Assembly: GCF_004010195.1 (NCBI RefSeq)
Contig: NC_057732.1
Location: 33,682,584 to 33,746,583, forward strand
Reading direction: 5' to 3'
DNA length: 64,000 nt
Source: Chiloscyllium plagiosum
Lineage: Eukaryota
Below, piece by piece: positions 7,820 through 52,460 of this stretch (positions are counted from its first letter, which is position 1; the number at the start of each line of letters is the position of its first letter). Below the pieces are notes generated by a model. It worked only from the letters and a program-made list of their open reading frames with translations. It was not told the DNA's origin and did not search any database. The position numbers were made by a program, and so were the translations under genes.

Positions 7820-9225
7820 CAATTTTTTGAAGAGGTAACAAGTAGGTTAGACCAGGGAAACCCAACGGATGTTACCTATCTAGACTTCCAAAAGGCCTTT
7901 GATAAGGTGCCTCATGGGAGGCTGCTGAGTAGGCTGAGGGCCCATGGTGTTGGAAGTGAATTACTGGCACGGATTGGGGATTGGCTGTCTGACAGTTGGG
8001 ATAAAAAGCTCTTTTTTGAAATGGCAGCTGGTGACAAGTGGTGTCCTGCAGGGTTCAGTGTTGGGGCTGCAGCTGTTCACATTATATATTAATTATCTGG
8101 ATGAGGGGACTGGGGACATTCTGGCGAAGTTCACCGATGATACGAAGTTAGGCGGATAGGCAGGTAGTTCTGAGGAGGTGGGGAGGCTGCACAATATTTT
8201 AGACAGTTTAGGAGAGTGGTCCAGGAAATGGCTGATGAAATTCAAGGTGAGCAATTGCAAGGTCTTGCACTTTGTAAAAAAGAATACAGGCATGGACTAT
8301 TTTTTAAATGATGAGAAAATTCATAAAGCCAAAGTATAAAGGGATCTGGGAGTGCTGATCCAAGGTTCTCTAAAGGTTGATTTGCAGGTTGAGTCCGTGA
8401 TTAAGAAAGCAAATGTAATGTTGTCATTTATCTCAAGAGAGTTGGAATATAAAAACAGCGATGTGTTTCTGAGACTTTATAAAGCTCTAGTTAGCCCCCA
8501 TTTAGAATACTGTGTCCAATTTTGGGCCAAAGTGAGGACTGCAGATGCTGGAGATCAGAACTGAAAATGTGTTGCTGGAAAAGCACAGCAGGTCAGGCAG
8601 CATCCAAGGAACAGGAGAGGGCTTATGCCCGAAACGTCGATTCTCCTGTTCCTTGGATGCTGCTTGACCTGCTGTGCTTTTCCAGCAACACATTTTCAGT
8701 TCCAATTTTGGGCCCCACACCTGAGGAAGGACATACTGGCACTGGAGCTTGTTCAGTGGAGATTCACACGAGTGACCCCTGGAATGGTAGGCCTAACATA
8801 TGATGATCGGCTGAGGATCTTGGGATTGTATTCACTGGAGTTTAGAAGGTTGAGGGGAAATCTAATAGAAACTTACAAGATAATGCATGGCTTAGAAAGG
8901 GTGGACACTGGGAAGTTGTTTCCATTAGGCGGGGAGACTAGGACCAGTGGGCACAGCCTTAAAATTAGAGGGGGTCAGTTTAGAACAGAAAAGAGGAGAC
9001 ATTTCTTCAGCCAGAGTGGTAAGCCTGTGGAATTCATTGCCATGGAGCGCAGTGGAGGCCGGGACGTTGGGTGTCTTCGAGGCTGAGATTGATAAATTCT
9101 TGATCTCGCAATTAAGGTCTACGGGGAGAGGGAGGTTAACTGGAATTAAAACGTCCATCAGCCATGATTAAATTGCGGAGTGGACTCAATGGGCCGAATG
9201 GCTTTGCTTTCATTCCTATGTCTTA
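7820..9225 (+). mobile_element. 5'-truncated CR1 LINE (RT to 3' end)
   Basis: [46 protein letters not shown] and LGLYSLEFRRLRGNLIETYKI. Confidence 0.9.
8529..8700. mobile_element. Fold-back PLE pLTR insertion (family A) with 14-bp TSD
   Basis: TSD tccaattttgggcc at 8515-8528 and 8701-8714. Inverted arms aactgaaaatgtgttgctggaaaagcacagcagg... and ...cctgctgtgcttttccagcaacacattttcagtt. Confidence 0.88.
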
Positions 9226-10090: not shown

Positions 10091-11592
10091 GAGTCTAGAT
10101 TAGAGTGGTGCTGGGAAAGCACAGCAGGTCAGGCAGCATCCGAGCAGCAGGAAAATCAACATTTCAGGCAAAAGCCCTTCATCAGGAATGAAGGCAGCGA
10201 GCTTTCAGGGTGGGAGATAAATGGGAGGAGGGTGGGGCTGGGGAGAAGGTAGCTAAGAGTACAATAGGTGGATGGAGGTGGGATGAAGGTGATAGGTCAG
10301 AGAGTAGGGTGGAGCAGATAGGTGGGCAGGGAGATTGGCAGGTAGGACCGGTCATGAGGATGGTGCTGAGCTGGAAGATTGGAACTGGAGTAAGGTGGGG
10401 GGAAGGGAAATAAGAAAACATTGATGCCCTGGGGTGGAAGTGTTCCAAGGTGGAAGATGAGGCGTTCTTCTTCCAGGCGTCGGGTGGTGAAGGAGTGGCG
10501 GTGGAGGAGGCCCAGGACCTGCATGTACTTGGCAGAGTGGGAGGGGGACTTGAAATGTTGGGCCACAGGGCGGTGTGGTTGATTGGTGCGGGTGTCCCGG
10601 AGATGTTCCCTAAAGCGCTCTGCGAGGAGGCGTCCAGTCTCCCCAATGTAGAGGAGACCGCATCGGGAGCAACGGATGCAATAAATGACATTGGTGGACG
10701 TGCAGGCAAAACTTTGATGGATGTGGAAGACTCCTTTGGGGCCTTGGATGGAGGTGAGTGGGGAGGTGTGGGCGCAAGTTTTGCAATTCCTGCAGTGGCA
10801 GGGGGAGGTGCCAGGATGGGAGAGTGGGTTGTTGGGGGGTGTGGACCTAACCAGGTAGTCACCGAGGGAACGATCTTTGCGGAAAGTGGAAAGGGGTGGG
10901 AAGGGAAATATATCCCTGGTGGTGGGGTCCGTTTGGAGGTGACAGAAACGTCGGCGGATGATGTGGTTATGCGGAGGTTGGTAGGGTGGAAGGTGAGGAC
11001 CAGGGAGTGCTGTCCTTGTTACGGTTGGAGGGGTGGGGTTTGAGGGCAGAGGTGCGGGACGTGGATGAGATGCACTGGAGGGCATCTTCAACCACGTGGG
11101 AAGGGAAATTGCAGTCTTTAAAGAAAGAGGCCATCTGGTGTGATCTATGGTGGAGAAGATATGGGCGGCATGGTGGCACAGTGGTTAGCACTGCTGCCTC
11201 ACAGCGCCTGGAGACCAGGGTTCAATTCCCGCCTCAGGCGACTGACTGTGTGGAGTTTGCACGTTCTCCCCGTGTCTGCGTGGGTTTCCTCTGGGTGCTC
11301 CGGTTTCCTCCCACAGTCCAAAGATGTGCAGGTCAGGTGAATTGGCCATGCTAAACTGCCTGTAGTGTTAGGTAAGGGGTAAATGTAGGGGTATGGGTGG
11401 GTTGCGCTTCGGCGGGTCGGTATGGACTTGTTGGGCCGAAGGGCCTGTTTCCACACTGTAATGTAATCTAATCTAATAAGGATCTCCTGGGAGCAGATAC
11501 AGCGGAGGTGGAGGAATTGGGAATACGGAATGGCATTTTTGCAGGAGGTAGGGTGGGAAGGGGTGTAATCCAGGTAGCTGTGGGAGTCGGAT
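10091..11592 (-). mobile_element. Penelope-like element (RT thumb + GIY-YIG endonuclease + pLTR), 5'-truncated and frameshifted
   Basis: SHSYLDYTPSHPTSCKNAIPYSQF; CHCRNCKTCAH; NVIYCIRCSRCGLLYIGETGRLLAERFREHLR; RRLEEERLIFHLGTLPPQGIN. Hammerhead motif at 10155-10189(-). Confidence 0.9.
11163..11477 (+). mobile_element. Full-length HE1-like (V-SINE type) tRNA-derived SINE nested in the PLE
   Basis: A-box tggcacagtgg (11174-11184), B-box ggttcaattccc (11219-11230), CR1-like 3' tail and (taatc)n end. It interrupts the PLE ORF. Confidence 0.9.
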
Positions 11593-13280: not shown

Positions 13281-13644
13281 CACACTGGCAAAAAGTGGAC
13301 TCTGCTATAGTGTGCACCCCATGAATTCCACCATTGACAATCTGGCTTCAGGTAGAATAGCTGATCCCTGAAGTATTCTGCATATGGAGCCTAACACTGA
13401 ATGTTCATCACTAGAATGACTTTTTTTTTAAAAAAAAAAGCCTCGTGGAAGTGTAAACATATGGTCAAAGAAGTCCCAAAGTATCTTCACATTAGGTTCA
13501 AATGTTAAGTGCTCCTATTCCAAGTTGAGACACTTGAGAAAGTCCCAAATGCTTGAAGACTGCTAATTCAATTTCATCACACAGTATATGAAATCTTACT
13601 TAAAAACATACAAATAATACCTTTAGGACAGTAAACATATCTAC

Positions 13645-14751
13645 CTTGCCCAACCCAGGACAATTGTGCGAACCATCAGATTTGTACGGATTATAAATGA
13701 TTTCCTCATTATCTTTTTTCCCGTTGTTACTATAGCAGATTTCTCTATATTCTTCAATCTTTTCATTTATCTGCTTCAAGGAGAACATGCAGAAAGCAGA
13801 CTTATCAGATGAGGTTGTTTTTAGGTTACCTCTGTTAAACACAGCAAAGAGTATTTTATCCCGTGGAGTTACAGTCCCATATAAACCTGATCTGTTCATA
13901 TGCTGAGCAAGTTTTTCTCCAGGATGATTAATGTAAGCAGCCTGCACAAGATTACAATCATCACATTCCAAGACCATTTCAATGTAAGAATAATAAGAAG
14001 CATCAGAAATGCAAAGCCGTGATATGTAAGTTGTAGGTTCTTGTTGCGATCCATCCGTTCGAGAGAAAAGGAAATAAACAAACCCCCCATCTTCAAAAGA
14101 AAATTTAAAATCATGTCGATATTGTAGATGAGAAACTGGTTTCAAAGCTGAAGAATCTTGAACAAGCTCAAAAAGGTGGCCCTTTTCAGAGAGTGTTCTG
14201 GTGCTTACTATTGCATTTGCAAATGTTTCAAAGTGTTTCCCAACAAACATTACTGGCTTGAGTTCATTTCTTGTGTCATTCATGAGAGTTATAAGGCCCA
14301 CAGTTGATTGATTACTTGCAACAAAAGTGGCTTCTCCACCATTCACATTTTCATATTTGATTACACTGATGTCATTCAGCTGCCTTATTGAGCATATTCC
14401 TTTAAATATATTTCCACATATTACAAGTCTTTCTCTATCTTTGTCTATTAAAAGGAGTTTATTGTAATTTTGAGTTAGTACTGTGTTTGAGCAAGTTGAA
14501 GGCTTTATTGGTGGCACACACTTTGGATTATCTTGTTTTGGACCAGTGTTTGCTTTCTTTTCCTCTTGGAGGTCTGATGTTAGTTGATAGAGGTAATTCA
14601 CTGCCCCAACATACACTTGCTCAGTGGTATCATCAATGGCCAAATGCAGTAGGTTTGTGGTGCTGGTAAATTCATTATATCCATCAACTCCAGGTTTAAA
14701 GCTCACATAAAAGGCTGTGAGTGCACAGAACATCCAAGTCCAAGGTGACAT
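13645..14751 (-). CDS. PLXNB2: Plexin-B2-like, first coding exon (signal peptide + N-terminal Sema domain, 369 codons)
   Basis: Translation MSPWTWMFCALTAFYVSF...LLHLAIDDTTEQVYVGAVNYLYQL...TGPKQDNPKCVPP...NKLLLID...CGNIFKGIC...FVASN...FVGK...IVSTR...FEDGGFVYFLF...RLCISDASYYSYIEMVLEC matches the plexin-B Sema domain from memory. FKGIC, IVSTR and FEDG point to B2 rather than B1. Acceptor tttttgcag| (exon starts 14764), ATG at 14751, donor AAG|gtagat at 13645, phase 0. The 442-aa track ORF overruns both splice sites. Confidence 0.9.
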
Positions 14752-15514
14752 TTCCAAAACCAAACTGCAAAAACACAAAAGATTTATTATAAATGAATTG
14801 TTGAGTGCATCTAATAAAACAAAACTTAACACAGTGATCATGGCCTTATTTTGAAGCGCTACATAAAAATAAACATAACCATCAATTATCTCAGCTCCTG
14901 AAGCCCACTCATTCCCAAACATTATCATCCTGAGCTATTTACATTAAATACTTCTTGCCCCAAATGATTACATGTAAAACAGCAAAGTACTTCGTATAAA
15001 GACAATTTCAACATTCTGACTTACATCTACACTGGTTCTTAACACAATCTTCCAAATGCAATCACAAACAGTCTACACAAGGTAAATGTAAATTACTTCA
15101 ATTTATAACCTAATGACTTTGCAGTTTACTTTCTCTAACCTCTTTCCAATGATTTTAGCAATGTTTTAAAATCATTTGTTAACCTCTCATTTGCTTTGCT
15201 TTTTCCTTATTTATTAGTGTTTTGATGCTCTTTTGATGAATTCTGTAATCCTCCCAATCCTCAGGTTTACTACTCTTTTTGGCAATTTTAATAAATCTCA
15301 TTCTCAGCTGTAATGTAATCTTAACCTCCTATCTATTCACAATTTCACCTTTTTTGCGAGTTTTTGCTCCTCAAATGAATGTACAATAATGTTGCATATT
15401 ATGTGTTAATTTTGTGTTAAGTATGTTAATAAACCCTTTTTCATTTCTTCATACTAGATTGAGATTATCCTGATCTCTATTTGGTTCTTCAAAATACTGA
15501 GATAGAAAATTAAA

Positions 15515-19900: not shown

Positions 19901-19958
19901 AGAGGAAGCACAGTCAGTCTTTTGAAAAGCTGCATAAACATGACGGTAGCTCTTTATG

Positions 19959-20977
19959 TGCCGGTTTTGGACTGGGGTGTACAAAGTTAAAAATCACACA
20001 ACACCAGGTTATAGTCCAACAGGTTTAATTGTAAGCACTAGCTTTCGAAGCACTGGTCCTTCATCAGGGGATTGTTGAGTACACGATTGGAAGACAGAAT
20101 TCATAGCAAAAGTTTACAATGTGATGTAGCTGAAATTATACGTTGAAAAAGACCTTGGTTGCTTGTTAAGTCTCTCATCTGTTAGAATGACTATGTTAAT
20201 TTCACTTCTTTCATACGTAAATCACAAAACCTTTTTAAAAAGTTACATTCTCAAGTGAACTTTAACAATTGGTGTCAGCCCACTGGTGTCAATTTTGCTA
20301 TAAATTCTGTGTCTTACAATCGCGTACTCCACAACCACCTGATGAAGGAGCAGCGCTCCGAAAGCTACTGCTTCCAATTAAACCTGTTGGACTATAACCT
20401 AGTCATAGAGTCATAGAGATGTACAGCATGGAAACAGACCCTTCGGTCCAACAATGTCACACAGAATCATGGATTAGGATTTCTTCAGATGGTGAGGTTT
20501 CCTGTCCCGCCACCTCCAGGGTCATTGGGGAGCACATCTCTGCCATTACTGGCTACCTATGGCCATTAAACATTGCAAGGAACATTAATTGGCTGGAGAT
20601 GAGACTTCTGCCCCTTCCCTTGAGAGAGGAAGTCCTATATCAGAGAGCTATTGGAAAGTCGAATTGGCTGACAGTTCTCTAGCCCAAGCAGCTCTAAAAG
20701 CTTAGTGAATGGGGCTGGGGCAACAAGCATCTCCCAGAGTCGAGGGCCAGGTGATTATTGGGGTTTTGGGTTGGAAAGGAGAGAGCATGCCGACCAGATA
20801 TCCCAACCCAATCTAGTCTCACTTGCCAGTACCCAGCCCACATCCTTCTAAACCCTTCCTATTCATATACCCATCCAAATGCCTCTTAATGTTGCAATTG
20901 TACCAGCCTCCATCACATCCTTTTGGCAGCTCATTCCATACACGTACCACCCTCTGTGTTGTGTGATTTTTATCTTT
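19959..20977. mobile_element. Fold-back element (family B) with two opposed hammerhead motifs, interrupted by a CR1 3' fragment
   Basis: Arms match 33806-34030. Hammerheads at 20036-20070(-) and 20336-20370(+). The right arm breaks at ggactataacct (20400) and resumes tgttgtgtgattttt at about 20957. Confidence 0.8.
20401..20957 (-). mobile_element. Short CR1 (HER1-like) 3' end carrying a ~340-bp foreign insert
   Basis: agtcatagagtcatagagatgtacagcatggaaacagacccttcggtccaac | insert | atgccgaccagatatcccaacc...cacgtaccaccctctg. Confidence 0.85.
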
Positions 20978-21691
20978 CTGTGCTGTAAAGTTACATGGGC
21001 TGAATTTACTCTCCCACCCCACTGCAAGATTGCATGTGGTGGTGGTTAGAATGAAGCAAAAACTTTTTTGGATAGCCTTCCCATCCATTCAGATCTCTCT
21101 GCAATTTTACAGTGGCATGGACATGACCTAGGCCTGACTGCCCTTGCTCCAACTATGGCCCTTAAGTAGTTTTTCCTGACCAGTTTCAACTTTCAGACAG
21201 TTGGGAGAAGTGTAGCAGCAGAATGAGGGGGGGAAGGAGGAAGTGGTGGGGAGCTCAGAGAGTTACTCTTCTCAGGACCAGGTGTGAAAATACAAGCCTT
21301 TACCAATGGTTTCTTGTGACCACCTTGGGTGCAGGATCTGCACAGCCATGAGTGCTCCCTCCCTTCCAATCCAAAACCCCAATAATCACCTGGCCCTCGA
21401 CTCTGGGAGATGCTTGTTGCCCCAGCCCCATTCACTAAGCTTTTAGAGCTGCTGGGGCTAGAGAACTGTCAGCCAATTCGACTTTCCAATAGCTCTCTGA
21501 TATAGGACTTCCTCTCTCAAGGGAAGGGGCAAGAGTCTCATGTCCAGCCAATTAATGTTCCTTGCAATGTTTAATGGCCATAGGCAGCCAGTAATGGCAG
21601 AGATGTGCTCCCCAATGATCCTGGAGGTGGCGGGACAGGAAACCTCACCATCTGAAGAAATCCTAATCCATGATTCTGTGCGACATTGTTG
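20449..21691. repeat. Inverted repeat with ~340-bp arms (20449-20787 and 21353-21691)
   Basis: caacaatgtcacacagaatcatggattagg...gagagca is the reverse complement of tgctccct...catgattctgtgcgacattgttg with few mismatches. Confidence 0.92.
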
Positions 21692-33042: not shown

Positions 33043-33898
33043 GATGGCATGCTACTGTCAGTTTCTTTGTGTAGCAGGAACCAATGCCTTTCTGTCTGGG
33101 CTGTCCTTTGTTTCGTGGGTAAGCTGCTGGAGGAGTTTGTGCAGGATAACTGACACCTTTTGTACTATGCTAATGTCATTAGTACCTGGCTGCTGTATTT
33201 GCACTATGTCTGCTGTGTGGGTTTAGTGATTTCAGAGTTTCACTTGGCCAATGTACCCAGCATCCTTTGCTGTTTGGCCAAGTTAGCAATCTGTGTATTC
33301 ACAGCCAGGAGGTTGCTACATCTGTCTTCACTTAGAAACTTTGACAACTTTTTTTTTGTGTGGTGAAAGCAGTGGGTGGGGTTGTGAGGGAGAGGAAGTG
33401 CAGAGGAATAAATGCTAGGAGAAATCGGATTTAAATGATACTGCCAGAACCAAGAAATTTACTTATGACTTCTGGCAGCCCCTCAGTACATTTCATCCCA
33501 TTTTAACAATCCTTACGGTAATGTGGAGCATGCAAAATTTTGAAGTCCACATTCCTTCACTGATAATTAAAACATTGCCTGAAAAATGTCTAAGTGATAT
33601 TTGTTTTCTTTCAATTTGGTGTGTTCTTAACAATATATTCATACCGTTCAAGATTTCAATAATTTGAAGGAGTGGTTTCAAAAATTGCGAGTAACCCTTT
33701 GGCAGTAAAGCATCCAGACAGCACGACATCACATCACATAGTGATCTCTGACACATGTGGGACATTTCAGTAATAGGATTTTTATTAGTACAATATTCCA
33801 AGTAGTCATGATTTGGAGATGCTGTTGTTGGACTGGGGTGTACAAAGTTAAAAATCACACAACACCAGGTTATAGTCCAACAGGTTTAATTGGAAGCA

Positions 33899-33933
33899 CA
33901 CTAGCTTTCGGAGCAATGCTCCTTCATCAGGTG
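33899..33933 (-). ncRNA. Minimal hammerhead ribozyme motif (family B), sense to the plexin strand
   Basis: Reverse complement reads cac-CUGAUGA-A-GGAGC AUU GCUCC-GAAAG CUA|gug. Confidence 0.78.
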
Positions 33934-33939
33934 ATCTAT

Positions 33940-33974
33940 CACCTGATGAAGGAGCGTTGCTCCGAAAGCTAGTG
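33940..33974 (+). ncRNA. Minimal hammerhead ribozyme motif (family B)
   Basis: cac-CUGAUGA-A-GGAGC GUU GCUCC-GAAAG CUA|gug; helix I cac/gug, helix III AGCU palindrome. Confidence 0.78.
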
Positions 33975-34229
33975 TGCTTCCAATTAAACCTGTTGGACTA
34001 TAACCTGGTGTTGTGTGATTTTTAACTTCTTATTCCAAGTAGATTGCATGGAATCAGACTCAGTGAAAAAATATAGCAGAATCCCCAGGTATAGGGCAGC
34101 TACTTTCTATTTTGCCTGTTCAAGATTTCAGCGTTCATGGAAAGTTGAGTGTATTTCTTTCGTTAAATTACAAATACCAAGTTTCTGAGAAACAATGAAA
34201 AGGTTTGTGTCCCAGCCTTATACTTTATA

Positions 34230-34795: not shown

Positions 34796-35227
34796 TAAAA
34801 CAAATGCTGTTTATGCTGTTTAAGGGATTCTCAAAAAAAGAGGACACTGTCATCAGGAATTCAGTGGAAAAGCCTGCGTCTGGAAAAACAATGCCAGTTC
34901 CAATCGCATCCAAAAGAAAAATACCACAGACTGTGTCATTCTCAATAGCTATTTTAAAGAGGAATGTATAAACCAAAGCTGTGCAAAATCAACAAGAGTA
35001 AGAAAAAGCAAAAATAATGTTTTGCAAGTACATGGTAGGTGAGCCGAAATATGAAAAAGATATTTCAACTTATAAGATTGGGTTTTCTGATCCTATAGTC
35101 GTAAAATTACAAAAAAATCATTCTTACTGTTTTTCTTCCTTGACCCCTGCTGCTAACCTTGTATGTCATAACAGTTCCTATCTTGGATTAGTCAATGCAG
35201 AATGGAATTTCAGGCATTCAATTCAAA

Positions 35228-35444
35228 GAGTTGAAAAGTGTGGTGCTGGAAAAACACAGCAGGCCAGGCAGCATCCGAAGAGCAGGAGAATCAACGTTTC
35301 GGGCATAAGCCCACTTTCAGGAATCGGGCTTATGCCCAAAACATCGATTCTCCTGCTCCTCAGATGCTGCCTGGCCTGCTGTGTTTTTCCAGCACCACAC
35401 TTTTCAACCCTGGTCTCCAGCATCTGCAGTCCTCACTTTCTCCT
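35228..35444. mobile_element. Fold-back pLTR insertion (family A) with 12-bp TSD
   Basis: TSD attcaattcaaa at 35216-35227 and 35445-35456; inverted arms of about 80 bp. Confidence 0.88.
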
Positions 35445-36577
35445 ATTCAATTCAAAAGAGCTACCATGGAAGAAACCCATTGTCCTAAAAAATCAAACAC
35501 AGGACAAGTCCCCAGCAGACCAGGTAAAGCCAAACTGATACAAAAGTACAAATGAACGTCTGTTCTAGGAGGATCAGGAAGTACAAAGTTTAAAACAAAC
35601 CATTAAAAGGAAACCCAACTTTTGGATAGTAAATTGACATAAAATAAACAAGGAATCATAAAGATAGTAATAAGTTCATGAAGTGTAGACTTGGCAGAAA
35701 GGAAGGACCCAAGAATAAATCAAATATTGGACAATGATATTAATCAAAAATAGAAAATGAATGTGACACAATATAAAGGGTTAAATAAAAGGAAACGGAA
35801 AATGAAGGTCACGGTGTGTTCACAACGGGATCAAGAAAAAAAATCTATCTGACAAGCAAAACTAAGTAAAAGGTTCCATTAAGGTCAGATGAATTAATTT
35901 AGAAATTATTTCTCTCTGTTGAGCCTATCCAACATGCAAACTTCTAAACAGGTTTATTCTCCACAACCATCTGTCATCCTTCTGAACCCAAGTTCAGCCA
36001 GGATTCACAGCACAGCGCAACTCTAGTCTTACTGAATATTCTGAGTTAATGTCTAAACGTTAGTCATTGAGATGAAAAAATAAATACATAAGATCAGAAG
36101 TGTCTCTACAGTAGCTACATAGATTAAGACCTCTTAAAACCTGGGAGAGTGGGGCAAAACAATTAATCTAGTTGAATTACCTGATAGATTAATTTTTTTC
36201 AAAAAGAATTTAACCTTAATCTAACATCTCTTCATAGGCAATGCCTCAATGTGTTTCTGTATCAGTCATACAAGAAAATTAAACAACAAATTACACTTTC
36301 AATTGCATCATCACAAAACAATGTTGGCACAATGAATCATACCCATATTGTCATTAGTTGTTTAATGAGACTTATCCTAGTTTAAATAATAAATGGATAC
36401 TATCAGCGTAAACTGTACTAAATGTAGCACAAGTTGTATATCTCAATTTCATAGTCATTAAAATGATAAGTTGTACTGAAACCACATTTGAATCAGCGAA
36501 TCAGCTAATAAATGTATTGCATGAGTCGGGGTTATAGCTGAATGATGCTGCATTTAGCCATGAACACTTTCAGCATT

Positions 36578-37904: not shown

Positions 37905-38060
37905 ATTAAAAATCAGACAACACCATGTTATAGTACAACAGGTTTATTTGGAAACAGTAGCTTTCAAAGCTAGTGCTTCCAAATAAACCTTTGGACTATA
38001 ACTTAGTGCTGTGTGAATTTTAACTTTGTCCACCACAGTCCAACACTGGCTCCTCCACAA
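37905..38060. mobile_element. Family B fold-back element with central hammerhead cores deleted
   Basis: Arms meet at tagctttc|aaagctag. Confidence 0.7.
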
Positions 38061-39679
38061 CATGTATTGAGATTTGACTGGGATAATGGCCCCAAGGTCA
38101 TGCTCACACAGAGGACAATCACTAGCAAGTTTGATTCTCTGGACTAGTAATACAAAAAAAACCTTCATCATGGTTCGAGTTTCAGCCTCTGATCATTATC
38201 TCAACAGCTTTGCAGAAAGCAGGTAGATGGTAGATGAAGGCAGTATCAGATGTCTGTGACGAATCCTACTCACTCCAGGCTTACACACATTTGAAAAATG
38301 CCACTTTATCTAAGTGCAGGAGAGCCACTCCCAACTGTAGTGTATTGTGTACTGCAACACAAGGAATCACCTTCAGAAATGGTAAAGGGAAGGCAAGTGA
38401 GGAATTAAAAATACTTTTTGGCAAAGGTCTGCTCAGCTCTCAAAAATAATGCATATCATGGTGAAAATAATGACAATTTGTCCTTTTCCCTCCTCCAAAA
38501 GTATTAACAGTTGTGACTCCCAAATTATCCATAACCCACATTGCTTTATAAGCACTAATTCTGAATGCTGAACATGTCAACACTTGTATTCTGATTCAAC
38601 TCAGTCAGAGTGCATGGATTTAAACAAACATCTACTAACACCTTCAAGCGGAAATCTAATCTTTCATGGTGTCTACATTGAGAAACAGGTTATTCAACTG
38701 AGTTTAGTGGTCAAACTGAAGGGCAGCAACACATTTCAAAACCACAATGATACATTGTAAAATGAATAGCAAATTTACACACAATTTAATTGTGGCAAAA
38801 TCACTCAGATGTGCACAAGATTTGGGTGTCATAAATTTAACTGACCTATGTTTTGAACTCCTTTTTATTCAGCCAGTGCAACAATTATCAGATTTGATCA
38901 AACATTTGGGACTCATTTTATTGTGGTTCTAAATTCCAACTTTGTGCGTCATCAGGGTAGTTTCGGTAAGACAAGTCAAATCATGATTCTCTGGATAGCT
39001 AAGGACATATTCAACTCACACTATTTCGGTTAGTACTGTATAGGAGAAATTAGAATTCATAGCCCTAGGTGAATTTACTGCTTACCATCACTTGCAAAAA
39101 AAAGTCAGTAAAGATAATTTAGGATTTAACATATTCACTTTAGTTTTTAAAAATTCTATTTTGAAAGGGAATAACTGATTTTAAAAAATGAATAATATTC
39201 TAGTATTGTCACTCAACCAGTTACTTCAGGCTGCAGCATTCAAATATTAACTTTCGATTCCAAGGACATGCAACGACAATATTTAATTCACTATCAGCAG
39301 GGTGAGGTGCCCTCCAAATTGGGAAACTGAGGTATAAAAAAGTCTAATTAGAGTATTATATAAATTAAACCTATATTTTCATGCTAATGCAGGGGAGTAG
39401 CAGTTCTTAACCAACTGTTGCATTAAAACCCTAATTCTACCACTGATGTTATGTCAGAATATAATATACAGTATGCAGAAAATGGTACGCCATGACAATA
39501 TTTTGAATATTAAAATATTTTCTTTGCTAGAATTAAACAGTCAATAACTGGAGAGCCACTTTGATCATCAGGTTAAATGTTTCCAGTAAATAGCAATTCC
39601 ACAGAAACATAACACTCCAAGATACATCCCAGAGGAAGAATGAAGGGGTCAGCAAGTACTGCTGGGATATTGTAGAAGC

Positions 39680-40427
39680 TGTGGATGTAGGTTTGCTCGC
39701 TGAACTGCAAGGTTCATTTCCAGACGTTTCGTCACCCTACTAGGTAACATCTTGAGTGGGCCTCAGGTGAAGCACTGCTGGTAAGTCCTGCTATCTATGT
39801 ATATGTTTGGGTTGGTGATGTCATTTCCTGTGGTGATGTCATTTCCAGTTATTTTTCTCAGAGGCTGGTAGATGTGGTCTAACTCAATGTGCTTGTTGAT
39901 AGAGTTCCAGTTCGAAAGCCATGCTTCTAGGAATTCTCGTGCATGTCTCTGTTTGGTTTGTCCTAGGATGATTGTGCAAGGACTGTAACAAACACTACAT
40001 TGAACAAACAGGCAGAAAACTAGCCACCAGGATACATGAACACTAATTAGCCACAAAAAGACATGATCCTCTCTCACTAGTATCCTTACATACAGATGAG
40101 GAAGGATACCATTTTGATTTGGACAACCCAACAGAGGCACGCACGAGAATTCCTAGAAGCATGACATTCCAACCGGAACTCTAACAACAAATACATCGAG
40201 TTAGACCCTAAGAAAAAGAACAGGAAGTGATTTCACGACAGGAAATTACATCACCAACTCAAACATATAAATAGAAAGAAGGACTTATCAGCAGTGCTTC
40301 GCCCGGTGGCCCAACTAAGATGTTACTAGTAGGGTGACGATACGTCTGGAGATGAACCTTCCAGCTCAGCGAGCAAATCTATATCCAGAACCTAAATCTG
40401 AGCTACAAATCTTCTCAAAATTCACTA
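39680..40427. mobile_element. Tail-to-tail inverted PLE (family C) with 13-bp TSD
   Basis: TSD atattgtagaagc at 39667-39679 and 40428-40440. GIY-YIG C-terminal peptide HAREFLEAWLSNWNSINKHIELDHIY on the left arm with its homolog on the right. Hammerhead motifs at 39720-39759(-) and about 40308-40350(+). Confidence 0.85.
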
Positions 40428-40789
40428 ATATTGTAGAAGCAACAGAAAGCTGAGTATCTGCAAGTATTTTGTAGAATAGCAAGAATTAGGCAGAGGGTAG
40501 ACATGAGACCATCTCCAATGGAGATGGTTAAACAAGCAGGAGGTAAAAATGTGGAATTTATGTATTATCATTTTAAATATGAATGGACCAAAGATTCCAA
40601 GACTTAGTATGTCAATAAAGATGGGCAGGATGGGTAAGTGCAATATGACACATTTGGTAAAGTTTTGGACAAGTTGGAGTTTATTGAAGGTGATGTCAGA
40701 AAGCTCGCAAGCAGTGAATAGAGGAAATTGAATCGAGAAATGACAAAGATGCAGCTAAAATTTAAATTAGTTATCGAGTAACTTTTGCA

Positions 40790-41945
40790 CCACATAAATG
40801 CCAGGCAATGACCACCTCCATTAAAAGACAATCTAATCATCGTCCCTCAACATTTAATGGCATTACCTCACTCTCAATATCCTCAGAGTTACCATTAATT
40901 TGAAACTAAGAGTATTCGAGAAGATTTATAGCTCAGGTTGTGGATGAGCTTGTTGACATGCTTGCTGAGCTGATTATTTGCAGAGATTGCATCACCATTC
41001 TAGGTAACATCATCAGTGCGCCTCCAGTGAAGCGCTGGCATTCTGTCCCATTTGCTATTTCCGGTTTTGTTGCTGGTTCCGTTTCTTAGTGGTTGGTATA
41101 TCGGGCATGGGAATTCCTGGAAGCCTGGACATCTATTAACAGACGTGTAGAGTTGGACCCCATATATCAAACAATAAGAAACAGAACCAGCAACAAAACC
41201 AGAAATGACACCACCAATCCCAGCAGACCCAGGCACATAAATAGCAAGTGGGATAGAACACCAACACTTCACCAGAGGCGCATTGATGGTGTTACATAGA
41301 ATAGTGACGAAACATCTGCAAACAAACTTACCAGCTTAGCGAGCAAGTCAACAACCTCATTAGAAACTAAACTGGACAAGCCATATAAATACAGTGACTA
41401 CAATAGCAGGTCAGAGGGTAGGAATACTGCAGATGTGACTTCCCAAAGTATGTCTGCCATCTACAAGGCATAAATCAGGTATGAGATAGAATATTCCCCA
41501 CTTGCCTGGATGGGTGCAGCTCCAGCAACACTCAAAAAGCTTGACACCATCCAGGACAAAACAGCCTATTTCATTATTTGTGGATGTGATGCCATTTACT
41601 CCCATCACCACCAGTAACACTGTATACTATCTACAGATGTACTGCAGAAATAAACCAAGAGGTAGCAAATTTGTTATCACTTACCACTTAGAAAGAAGAG
41701 CACCAGATACAATGGGAACACCACCAACTACAAGTTTCCATCCTGACTTAAATACATTGCTTTTCTTTCAGTATCACTGGGTCAAGATCCTGGAATTCCC
41801 TCCCTAATGGCATTGTGGATTTCCCCATAGCACGTAGACTCAGCAGTTTATGAAGGCAGCTCATCACCATCTTCTCAAGAGCAACTAGGGATGGGCACAA
41901 AACACTGAACCAGCCAGTAACAGCGACGACTCAAAAGCGAATTTT
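40790..41945 (+). mobile_element. Old CR1/L2-type LINE 3' fragment, interrupted
   Basis: YKA.IR..IEYSPLAWMGAAPA.LKKLDTIQDK motif at 41460-41560; 3' tail gcaactagggatgggca. Confidence 0.7.
40910..41362. mobile_element. Fold-back PLE family C insertion
   Basis: gaaactaa duplicated at 40902-40909 and 41363-41370; WEFLEAWTSINRRVELDPIY; hammerhead remnants near 40985-41020(-) and 41277-41320(+). Confidence 0.75.
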
Positions 41946-50651: not shown

Positions 50652-51239
50652 AATTTGTATCAGATCACATATTATTCCAGCAACGTTTATTTGGGCAGTG
50701 CTACCCAACCGGGCATGAGCTAATTGAAATGCATATCCTGATAATGAAAACTTTAAAATCAAAGGTCATATTGAATTTGAATGGTTAACTGTTTCCCTCT
50801 TACAGATTTGCCAAACCCAAGTTCCTCCAAAGCTTTTGTTTCAGATTTCCAGCACTCGCTGTGTTCTCCAATGGTTTTAATTAAACCTTTTAAATGGAAA
50901 TAATCTGTAGATAATCTTGAACATTTCAACTGATGGGCCATGACTATTTCCTTTGGCAGTTTAATTGTTCAACGTGACATTGTCCTTGGGAAGAAAGATT
51001 GCTGATGCATTACCTTGGAAACAAATGGTCTTTGTAGTTTGTCTTGATGACTGAATTGTGTTTTATCATGACATAGGGAACCAATTACTCATTTCTGTCA
51101 ACTTCCACCAATCCATTCCACATTTTGTAGAACGTAGTCCAACTATTTGCTTTCTTGCTTTGCTGTAGTGATTTCCATTCCAATCTTTTATCAAGGATAG
51201 AACACCTCTCAGTGATTTGTGCAGAACAGTGAAGTGCTA

Positions 51240-52460
51240 GCTCCCACCCCTTCCTGGGCCTCTCCACCCCCATCAACGGTGACCAACTCAACATGGACAT
51301 CTTCCACAAACCCACCAACTCCCACAGCTACCTGGACTACACCTCTTCCCACCCTGCCTTCTGTAAAAACACTATCCTTTATTCCCAAGTCCTCTGCCTC
51401 CGCTGCATCTGCTCCCAGGAGGACCAATTCCACCACAGAACACCCCAGATGGCCTCCTTCTTCAAAGACTGCAATTTCCCCTCCCACGTGGTCAATTATG
51501 CCCTCCAGCGCATCTCATCCACTTCCCGCATCTCCGCCTTCAAACCCATCCCTTCAACCACAATAAAGGACAGAACCATCCGGTCCTCACCTTCCACCCC
51601 ACCAACCTCCAGATACATCGTATCATCCTTCGCCATTTCCACCATCTACAAACAGACTCCACCACCAGAGATATATTTCCCTCCCCATCCTTATCTGTGT
51701 TCCATAAAAACAATTCCCTCTGCGACTCTTATCAGGTACATGCCCCCCCACCAAACCATCCTCCCCTCACATCACAAGGATTGCATAACCTGTGCCCAAA
51801 CCTCCCCCCTCACCTCCATCCAAGGCCCCAAAAGAGCCTTCTACATCCATCAGAGATTTACCTGCACCTCCACTCTTCATTTACTGTATCCGTTGCTCCC
51901 AATGCGGTCTCCTCTACACTGGTGAGACAGGACACTACTCGCAGAACGCTTCAGAGAACATCTCCAGGACACGCTCACAAAGCAACCCCACCCCCCAGTG
52001 GCCAAACACTTTAACTCCCCCGCCCACTTCACCTAGGACATGCAGGTCCTCGGCCACCTCCATCATCAAGTCCTAGCCACCCAACGCCTTGAGGAAGAAC
52101 GCCCCATTTTCTGCCTTGGGACCCTCCCACCACATGGGATTAATGTGGATTTCACCAGTTTCCTCATTTCCCCTTCCCCCACTTTATCCTGGATCCAACC
52201 TTCCAACTCGGCACCGCCCTCTTGACCTGTCCATCTTCTATCACCCTCACCTTAACCTCCTTCCCCCTAACGCATTTCCAACACCTCTCCTCCCTACCTT
52301 TTATCTTTGCCTGCTTGGCGCACTTTCCTCATTCCTGAAGAAGAGCTCATACCGAAACATTGATTCTCCTGCTCCTCCGATGCTGCCTGACCAGCTGTGC
52401 TTTTCCAGCACCACACTCATGATTCTGATCTACAGCATCCGCAGTCCTCACTTTCTTCTA
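51240..52460 (+). mobile_element. Penelope-like element (family A), 5'-truncated and frameshifted
   Basis: DIFHKPTNSHSYLDYTSSHP; IYCIRCSQCGLLYTGETG; RLEEERPIFCLGTLPPHGINVDF; pLTR with CUGAAGA...GAAAC at 52335-52358. Confidence 0.9.

Follow-up and report, generated by a model that had tools for sequence, protein, structure and literature searches.

A palindromic, hammerhead-bearing insert with head-to-head arms as a probable integration product of a Penelope-like retroelement

EN+ Penelope-like elements (PLEs) typically form insertion units with an inverted pLTR, an optional 31-bp tail and TSDs of 8-10 bp, mostly arranged head-to-head (PMC3846280, Arkhipova et al. 2013), and an inverted 5'-truncated copy associated with a 30-40-bp tail has been described in a report that calls the formation of tandem and inverted PLE structures still undefined (PMC8557442, Craig et al. 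2021). On the biochemical level, the PLE protein of the anole, a predicted dimer, is described as cutting and extending both target strands, and as starting in vitro at two sites within the RNA, one at each boundary of the tail (PMC11167929, Frangieh et al. 2024). The min-HHRs of PLEs are reported to show no cleavage as single motifs and weak cleavage as dimers, and min-HHR pairs on opposite strands, 100-700 bp apart, have already been described (PMC4209133). Additionally, the name non-LTR retrozyme has been given to direct repeats in tandem that carry two or more hammerhead units in succession (Li, Clavereau and Pollet 2026, 10.64898/2026.07.22.740005). In a search of the main texts of mostly open-access papers, no literature on shark PLE hammerhead palindromes or on PLE twin priming was found.

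Here we describe a short palindromic insert within a stretch of 64,000 nucleotides (the window, whose numbering is used throughout), taken from a gapped assembly (385 N). The insert very probably goes back to a single integration by an endonuclease-bearing Penelope-like retroelement of family B, during which synthesis of each cDNA arm ended prematurely; its identification as a truncated PLE insertion is independent of whether the arms arose by twin priming or by self-priming.

Architecture of the insert and of neighbouring complexes

Between two 12-bp direct repeats lie 225 bp in the order TSD, tail, arm, facing arm, TSD, with the 5'-truncated ends meeting at the centre and the 3' ends pointing outward (Table 1). 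An earlier sequence-only reading had described a palindrome with arms of about 90 bp, a 2-nt gap and a mismatch near the stem II loop, and this description was borne out: the arms measure 91 nt each, 2 nt apart, and differ solely at 33917/33956, where the stem II loop begins, by a CpG-type change. The one-sided extension of about 40 bp and the 12-bp TSD that it reported were likewise recovered, the former as a 39-nt tail and the latter as a duplication identical at 12 of 12 positions, against a best score of 8 among 298 random position pairs in the TSD search and with a chance estimate of about 6e-5 when 625 offset pairs are allowed. The tail, which is also carried by the family-B copies at 19959 and 37966-38064, leaves the insert with termini that are not mutual inverted repeats. 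The suggestion of a minimal product of tail-to-tail PLE integration is supported as regards PLE integration, and has to be corrected as regards orientation, which is head-to-head.

Table 1. Coordinates of the focal insert and of neighbouring inverted complexes in the window
Feature	Position	Strand	Remarks
TSD, left copy	33794-33805	+	12 bp
PLE tail	33806-33844	-	39 nt, left arm only; its outer end represents one of the family's two end classes
Left (tailed) arm	33845-33935	-	family-B 3' end module, sense on -; 5' truncation 5 nt before hammerhead core
Poly(A) signal ATTAAA, left arm	33885-33890	-	AATAAA in about one third of DNA depth
Minimal type I hammerhead, left arm	33899-33933	-	predicted cut 33902/33901, from standard hammerhead numbering
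Centre	33936-33937	+	2 nt; templated family letters (-7/-6) of right arm
Right (tail-less) arm	33938-34028	+	family-B 3' end module, sense on +, ends at tail boundary
Minimal type I hammerhead, right arm	33940-33974	+	core from 33943; predicted cut 33971/33972
Mirror poly(A) signal, right arm	33983-33988	+	
Two extra letters	34029-34030	+	match neither family continuation nor TSD; probably untemplated
TSD, right copy	34031-34042	+	12 bp
Family-A complex	8529-8702 (8515-8714 with TSD)		14-bp perfect TSD, one-sided tail, head-to-head
Family-B complex	19959-20977		centre near 20292; right arm split by another repeat at about 20404-20955
Family-A complex	35227-35441 (35216-35456 with TSD)		12-bp perfect TSD, one-sided tail, head-to-head
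Family-B complex	37906-38064		centre 37965, inside GAAA
Family-C complex	39680-40427 (39667-40440 with TSD)		13-bp perfect TSD, one-sided tail, head-to-head; spacer with GIY-YIG remnant

Five other complexes in the window, drawn from three families, repeat the focal layout around different centres. Because the layout recurs in other families, it appears as a property of PLE integration and not of one particular unit. Perfect TSDs of 12-14 bp were found in four of the seven inverted complexes (the focal insert and those at 8529, 35227 and 39680); two of the remaining three have degenerate TSDs within the null range, and one has no TSD. The link to PLEs is further supported by family A, which runs into a GIY-YIG frame (PF01541, E 7.5e-5), and by the spacer of the family-C complex, which aligns to that frame (12 of 23 residues identical, E 4e-6); the 24-aa family-C peptide has no Pfam match, its GIY-YIG link being given by the pairwise alignment alone. 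The earlier statement that the window lacks a family-B coding sequence was upheld, since the upstream part of the longest copy, 225 nt in length, is interrupted by stop codons in each of the three sense frames. A 22-nt family-B pattern had no match in metagenome, viral or prokaryotic genome contigs, in which no autonomous partner was found; neither there nor in the window did an RT or endonuclease frame prove to be linked to family B.

Several further features of the window deserve mention. The family-B complex with its flanks (19951-20985) is older, with one long arm reaching about 225 nt upstream of the core and a degenerate TSD of 11-13 bp, and an inverted repeat (20449-20787 / 21353-21691; 339 bp, 97% identity, 565 nt apart) that overlaps its interrupted arm may have arisen by inverted duplication or as a non-autonomous DNA transposon. 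At 40910-41360 lies a decayed family-C-related inverted complex with an inner 49-bp hairpin (41057-41206), from which no TSD was recovered. A long family-A PLE 3' remnant occupies 10297-11181 (minus strand) and extends to 10102; in it a hammerhead at 10185 comes after a GIY-YIG frame, and a similar remnant lies at 51233-52460 (plus strand). Solo PLE-type end stubs, with intact or decayed cores and from at least three families, occur at 200, 24596, 28478, 37304, 42685 and 52335. A 444-aa stop-to-stop frame with a Sema domain (PF01403) is found at 13603-14934 (minus strand), 19 kb from the insert; we take it to be the likely first large coding exon of a plexin-like gene.

In the left flank, the letters directly before the TSD (33776-33793) resemble the family-B arm/tail boundary, a likeness that could hint at target choice by resemblance to the element's own end. 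Further out, 33166-33320 is an unrelated multi-copy repeat of about 130-150 bp with high contig depth, and position 33788 reads G in the window and C in all three DNA runs, pointing to a private allele or an assembly error.

Routes to the inverted arms

The joint at 33935/33936 is blunt, with neither microhomology nor inserted letters, and the letters of the centre are the family's next upstream letters on the right arm according to the loose-end consensuses (run X5 before 33936, 25 contigs; run X21 behind 33935, 544 reads). Relative to the hammerhead core, the tail-less right arm ends 7 nt upstream and the tailed left arm 5 nt upstream, leaving only 5-7 nt beyond the core on the arms; each of the two arms contains family letters that are absent from its partner. 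Six complexes allowed such offsets to be resolved, a count that leaves out 40910-41360 as too decayed (63% arm identity): the tail-less arm is the longer one in four, by 1, 2, about 12 and 23 nt, and the tailed arm is longer by about 160-180 nt in the other two. As the tail-less arm in these four complexes holds family sequence missing from the tailed arm, neither arm is a plain copy of the other. In a small sample of mapped stubs, 5' ends fall just before the core (-4, -4, -5 and -7) as well as at +7, +8, +33, -44 and far upstream.

The nature of the template is constrained by family RNA, for which about 2% of one poly(A) single-cell run (X21) was sampled and 2716 reads matched the stretch; these are family-level reads, 70 of the 2716 matching at 99% identity or above. 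Poly-T loose ends at 33870 (542 reads) and 33873 (448 reads) correspond to sense-strand polyadenylation 12-15 nt past the hexamer at 33885-33890, at a site that lies 25-28 nt inward of the tail-less end, or about 65 nt inward of the tail end. RNA polyadenylated there would end short of either insertion end, so that ordinary poly(A) RNA cannot have been the template of the insert.

Within the PLE-insertion explanation, we infer, with somewhat more confidence than doubt, a route of staggered nicks, twin priming and end joining. The RT-endonuclease would nick the target strands with a stagger of 12 nt, and both target 3' ends would then prime cDNA, one at the tail end and the other at the tail-less start 39 nt inward; the two cDNA arms would pass the hammerhead core, stop 5 and 7 nt upstream of it and be joined end to end. 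An unprocessed or read-through RNA would serve as the template, which would account for an insert without a poly(A) tail. The 12-bp TSD and the outward 3' ends, taken together with the results described for the predicted dimer in PMC11167929, make twin priming the simplest reading, and a blunt joint with the tail-less arm reaching 2 nt further favours two separately primed cDNAs, even if the 2-nt templated offset at 33936-33937 may be chance (1 in 16).

A possible but doubtful alternative keeps the same element and has the inverted arm arise by self-priming or fold-back, with either an antisense template or the first cDNA being copied, after which the endonuclease trims one tail. Self-priming has been proposed from palindromes at the inverted junctions of rotifer PLEs (PMC3846280), and the one-sided tail has been ascribed to endonuclease resolution (PMC8557442). 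Such a model accommodates the nearly symmetric centres at 33936-33937 (2 nt) and 37965 (1 nt) and the minority family states common to both arms, and it fits at least equally well the two of six complexes in which both arms stop within 1-2 nt. It is harder to reconcile with a joint devoid of microhomology, and pairing cannot close a loop of 1-2 nt. Moreover, fold-back from the tailed arm cannot give the centre letters, which are templated for the tail-less arm, and fold-back from the tail-less arm would need an additional step to produce the tail.

An unlikely further proposal returns to two cDNAs and would have both arms synthesised by the paired RTs of a single PLE dimer, which travel in convoy along one unprocessed RNA, with the tail-less start leading, the tail start trailing by 39 nt, and the arms joined where the leader stalls. 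The tail-less arm would then usually reach a few nucleotides further 5', unless the leader drops off early; the further-5' tail-less arm of four of the six complexes agrees with this prediction, and the longer tailed arm of the other two would reflect early drop-off. Were the convoy correct, the very many stubs in the genome would constitute a fossil record settling how PLE inverted ends form.

Centres, hairpin folding and age

Family B is very abundant. In four compared public runs of 24 listed, aligned to a reference of 33100-33970, which takes in the left flank, the tail and the left arm and runs 33 nt beyond the centre, the three DNA runs yielded 80477, 48208 and 81597 contigs matching the stretch, whose summed depth does not translate into a copy number. 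Loose ends with mixed flanks at 33808 and 33844-33847 represent the tailed and tail-less end classes; their flank consensuses are AT-rich and of low agreement (0.34-0.37), in a window that is itself about 60% AT. Joints numbered 194 at many positions (15 shown and 179 counted), with left-arm ends among those shown at 33832-33899, in a list biased by the short reference and by a common 2-nt indel at 33897-33899. Joints at 33897-33899 were considered as arms ending at the hammerhead cut and set aside, since they coincide with that indel. Depth across 33934 was 7934, 1393 and 2318, against 1.36-1.59 million at 33916, so that centres near 33934 seem to make up at most 0.1-0.6% of core depth, an upper bound that leaves room for other copies centred there. 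Centre variants were also seen, with one letter absent at 33935 in 18, 7 and 18 contigs and A>G at 33934 in 31, 12 and 29.

These data bear on the proposal, made in the sequence-only reading, of a discrete non-autonomous 225-bp palindromic unit that moves whole in the manner of a MITE or a retrozyme. The clean TSD and the near-identical arms would suit such a unit, and contigs with centres within 1 nt of the focal one seem to exist. It nevertheless appears very improbable: copies of a MITE-like unit share both ends and the centre, whereas the three family-B inverted complexes of the window have three different centres and the runs contain the 194 joints, and the same layout is met in the unrelated families A and C, with termini that the one-sided tail prevents from being inverted repeats.

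A CUGAUGA...GAAA core is present on each strand, from 33943 (plus) and from 33930 (minus). Both hammerheads have an intact core with an extra base before helix II, a helix I of 3 bp, a helix II of 5 bp with a 3-nt loop, and a helix III of 1 bp around a palindromic AGCU; the description of an intact hammerhead per strand therefore stands for the core, and the word complete was overstated in view of helices I and III. Rfam searched over the window at E<=1 gave nine matches, none to a hammerhead and all under the gathering score; matches of microRNA-precursor type over the element were rejected as generic hairpin matches, below their gathering scores.

The hairpin folds at -173.2 kcal/mol (z -24.3), a value equalled by none of 200 shuffles, and forcing helices I and II costs 60.0 kcal/mol on the plus strand and 57.4 kcal/mol on the minus strand. 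With the predicted ribozyme fold lying 57-60 kcal/mol above the hairpin, a two-state switch between them is not credible, and the ribozyme would be hidden in any read-through transcript. The idea that a transcript could fold either as ribozyme or as dsRNA is further weakened by the order of the arms, the antisense arm being transcribed first on both strands, and by the presence of one sense core per strand where the motif needs a dimer. The copy would now be inert: a read-through transcript would make the antisense arm first and zip into a 91-bp hairpin concealing both ribozyme and poly(A) signal. As part of the unlikely convoy reading, such a hairpin would also neutralise the element's poly(A) signal and ribozyme in a host pre-mRNA, which could make it more likely that palindromic copies persist within genes. 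RNA ends did not pile up at the predicted cut or elsewhere on the stretch among the results listed, in a poly(A) single-cell library that is a poor test of cleavage.

As regards age, the left junction (flank, TSD, tail) is present in an X1 contig over 33267-33830, with two differences and 25 nt into the element, and in a contig from a second organism, B (X10), over 33289-33822, with 21 differences in 534 nt, three gaps and 17 nt into the tail; both contigs reach less far than the 31-letter bridging rule requires. No empty site was seen; an X5 contig ends within the TSD, at 33802. By this evidence the insertion seems to predate the split of about 4% from organism B, and as that organism seems to carry the same insertion, the insertion is not recent and its earlier description as young is weak. 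The single arm mismatch agrees with neutral ageing over the time since the split, for which 3.6 mismatches would be expected (P = 0.13). A mutation rate of 7e-10 per generation was measured directly in one shark (PMC10587355); at that rate, and if the host is a shark, the split would date back millions of generations.

Even less probable than a discrete mobile unit is a functional RNA switch, or a dsRNA source recruited by the host as a small-RNA or editing substrate, near the plexin-like gene. The great stability of the hairpin, the apparent retention of the insertion in two species with one arm mismatch, and the position of the Sema-domain exon 19 kb away on the minus strand could be read in its favour. 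Against it, the ribozyme state is energetically remote, the single mismatch fits neutral ageing, and the sampled 2% of run X21 contained no RNA read from the unique flank 33340-33789, a weak test. Nor did A-to-I editing, for which a check had been suggested, find support: at the family level, A>G/T>C places in RNA (12/12) show no excess over those in DNA (7-10/14-18). Least probable of all is an assembly or library artefact, since the two-sided TSD, arm mismatch, one-sided tail and templated 2-nt offset are unlike a fold-back chimera and two organisms have the left junction in their runs, even though the assembly is gapped and no contig listed in the runs aligned to 33100-33970 spans the centre of this locus or the right junction.

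Relation to described elements

The insert combines an inverted truncated module, a 39-nt tail at one end, a TSD and a minimal type I hammerhead, all of them features of EN+ PLEs. Like the EN+ insertion units described in PMC3846280 and PMC8557442, it has a head-to-head terminal module, a tail of 30-40 nt at one end, a short TSD, heavy 5' truncation and no poly(A) tail. Unlike those units, it has no ORF and no direct-repeat partner, and its two arms end at nearly the same point shortly before the hammerhead, 2 nt apart at most; its TSD, furthermore, is 12 bp, as compared with 8-10 bp in the rotifer PLE cases of PMC3846280.

The hammerheads agree with the min-HHRs of PMC4209133 in their intact core, the extra base between 9 and 10.1, the G10.1-C11.1 pair, the short helix I and the palindromic helix III. 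The cores here start 13 nt apart within one near-perfect hairpin, as against 100-700 bp for the min-HHR pairs of that report. As in PAc, the Poseidon PLE of the green anole, two end classes bound the tail and no pile-up of RNA ends was observed at the predicted cut; the PAc tail lies inside the ORF start (PMC11167929), whereas no family-B ORF was found in the window.

With animal non-LTR retrozymes, as defined in the report cited above, the insert shares its non-coding, PLE-derived character and the type I hammerhead, and it departs from their tandem definition in that its hammerhead units are inverted, one per strand. A further parallel comes from a different class of retroelement. In LINE-1, 5' inversions arise by twin priming, in which both target nicks prime cDNA and the inversion lies inside the TSD, the two cDNAs copying non-overlapping parts and a poly(A) tail remaining. 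In the present insert, by contrast, both cDNAs copy the same 91 nt, and there is no poly(A) tail.

Altogether, the layout has been in print since at least 2013, and the locus, as one of very many truncated PLE copies, carries little weight alone; set beside the described systems, the blunt joining of its arms at templated letters and polyadenylation of family RNA upstream of either end limit the models by which PLE inverted ends can form.
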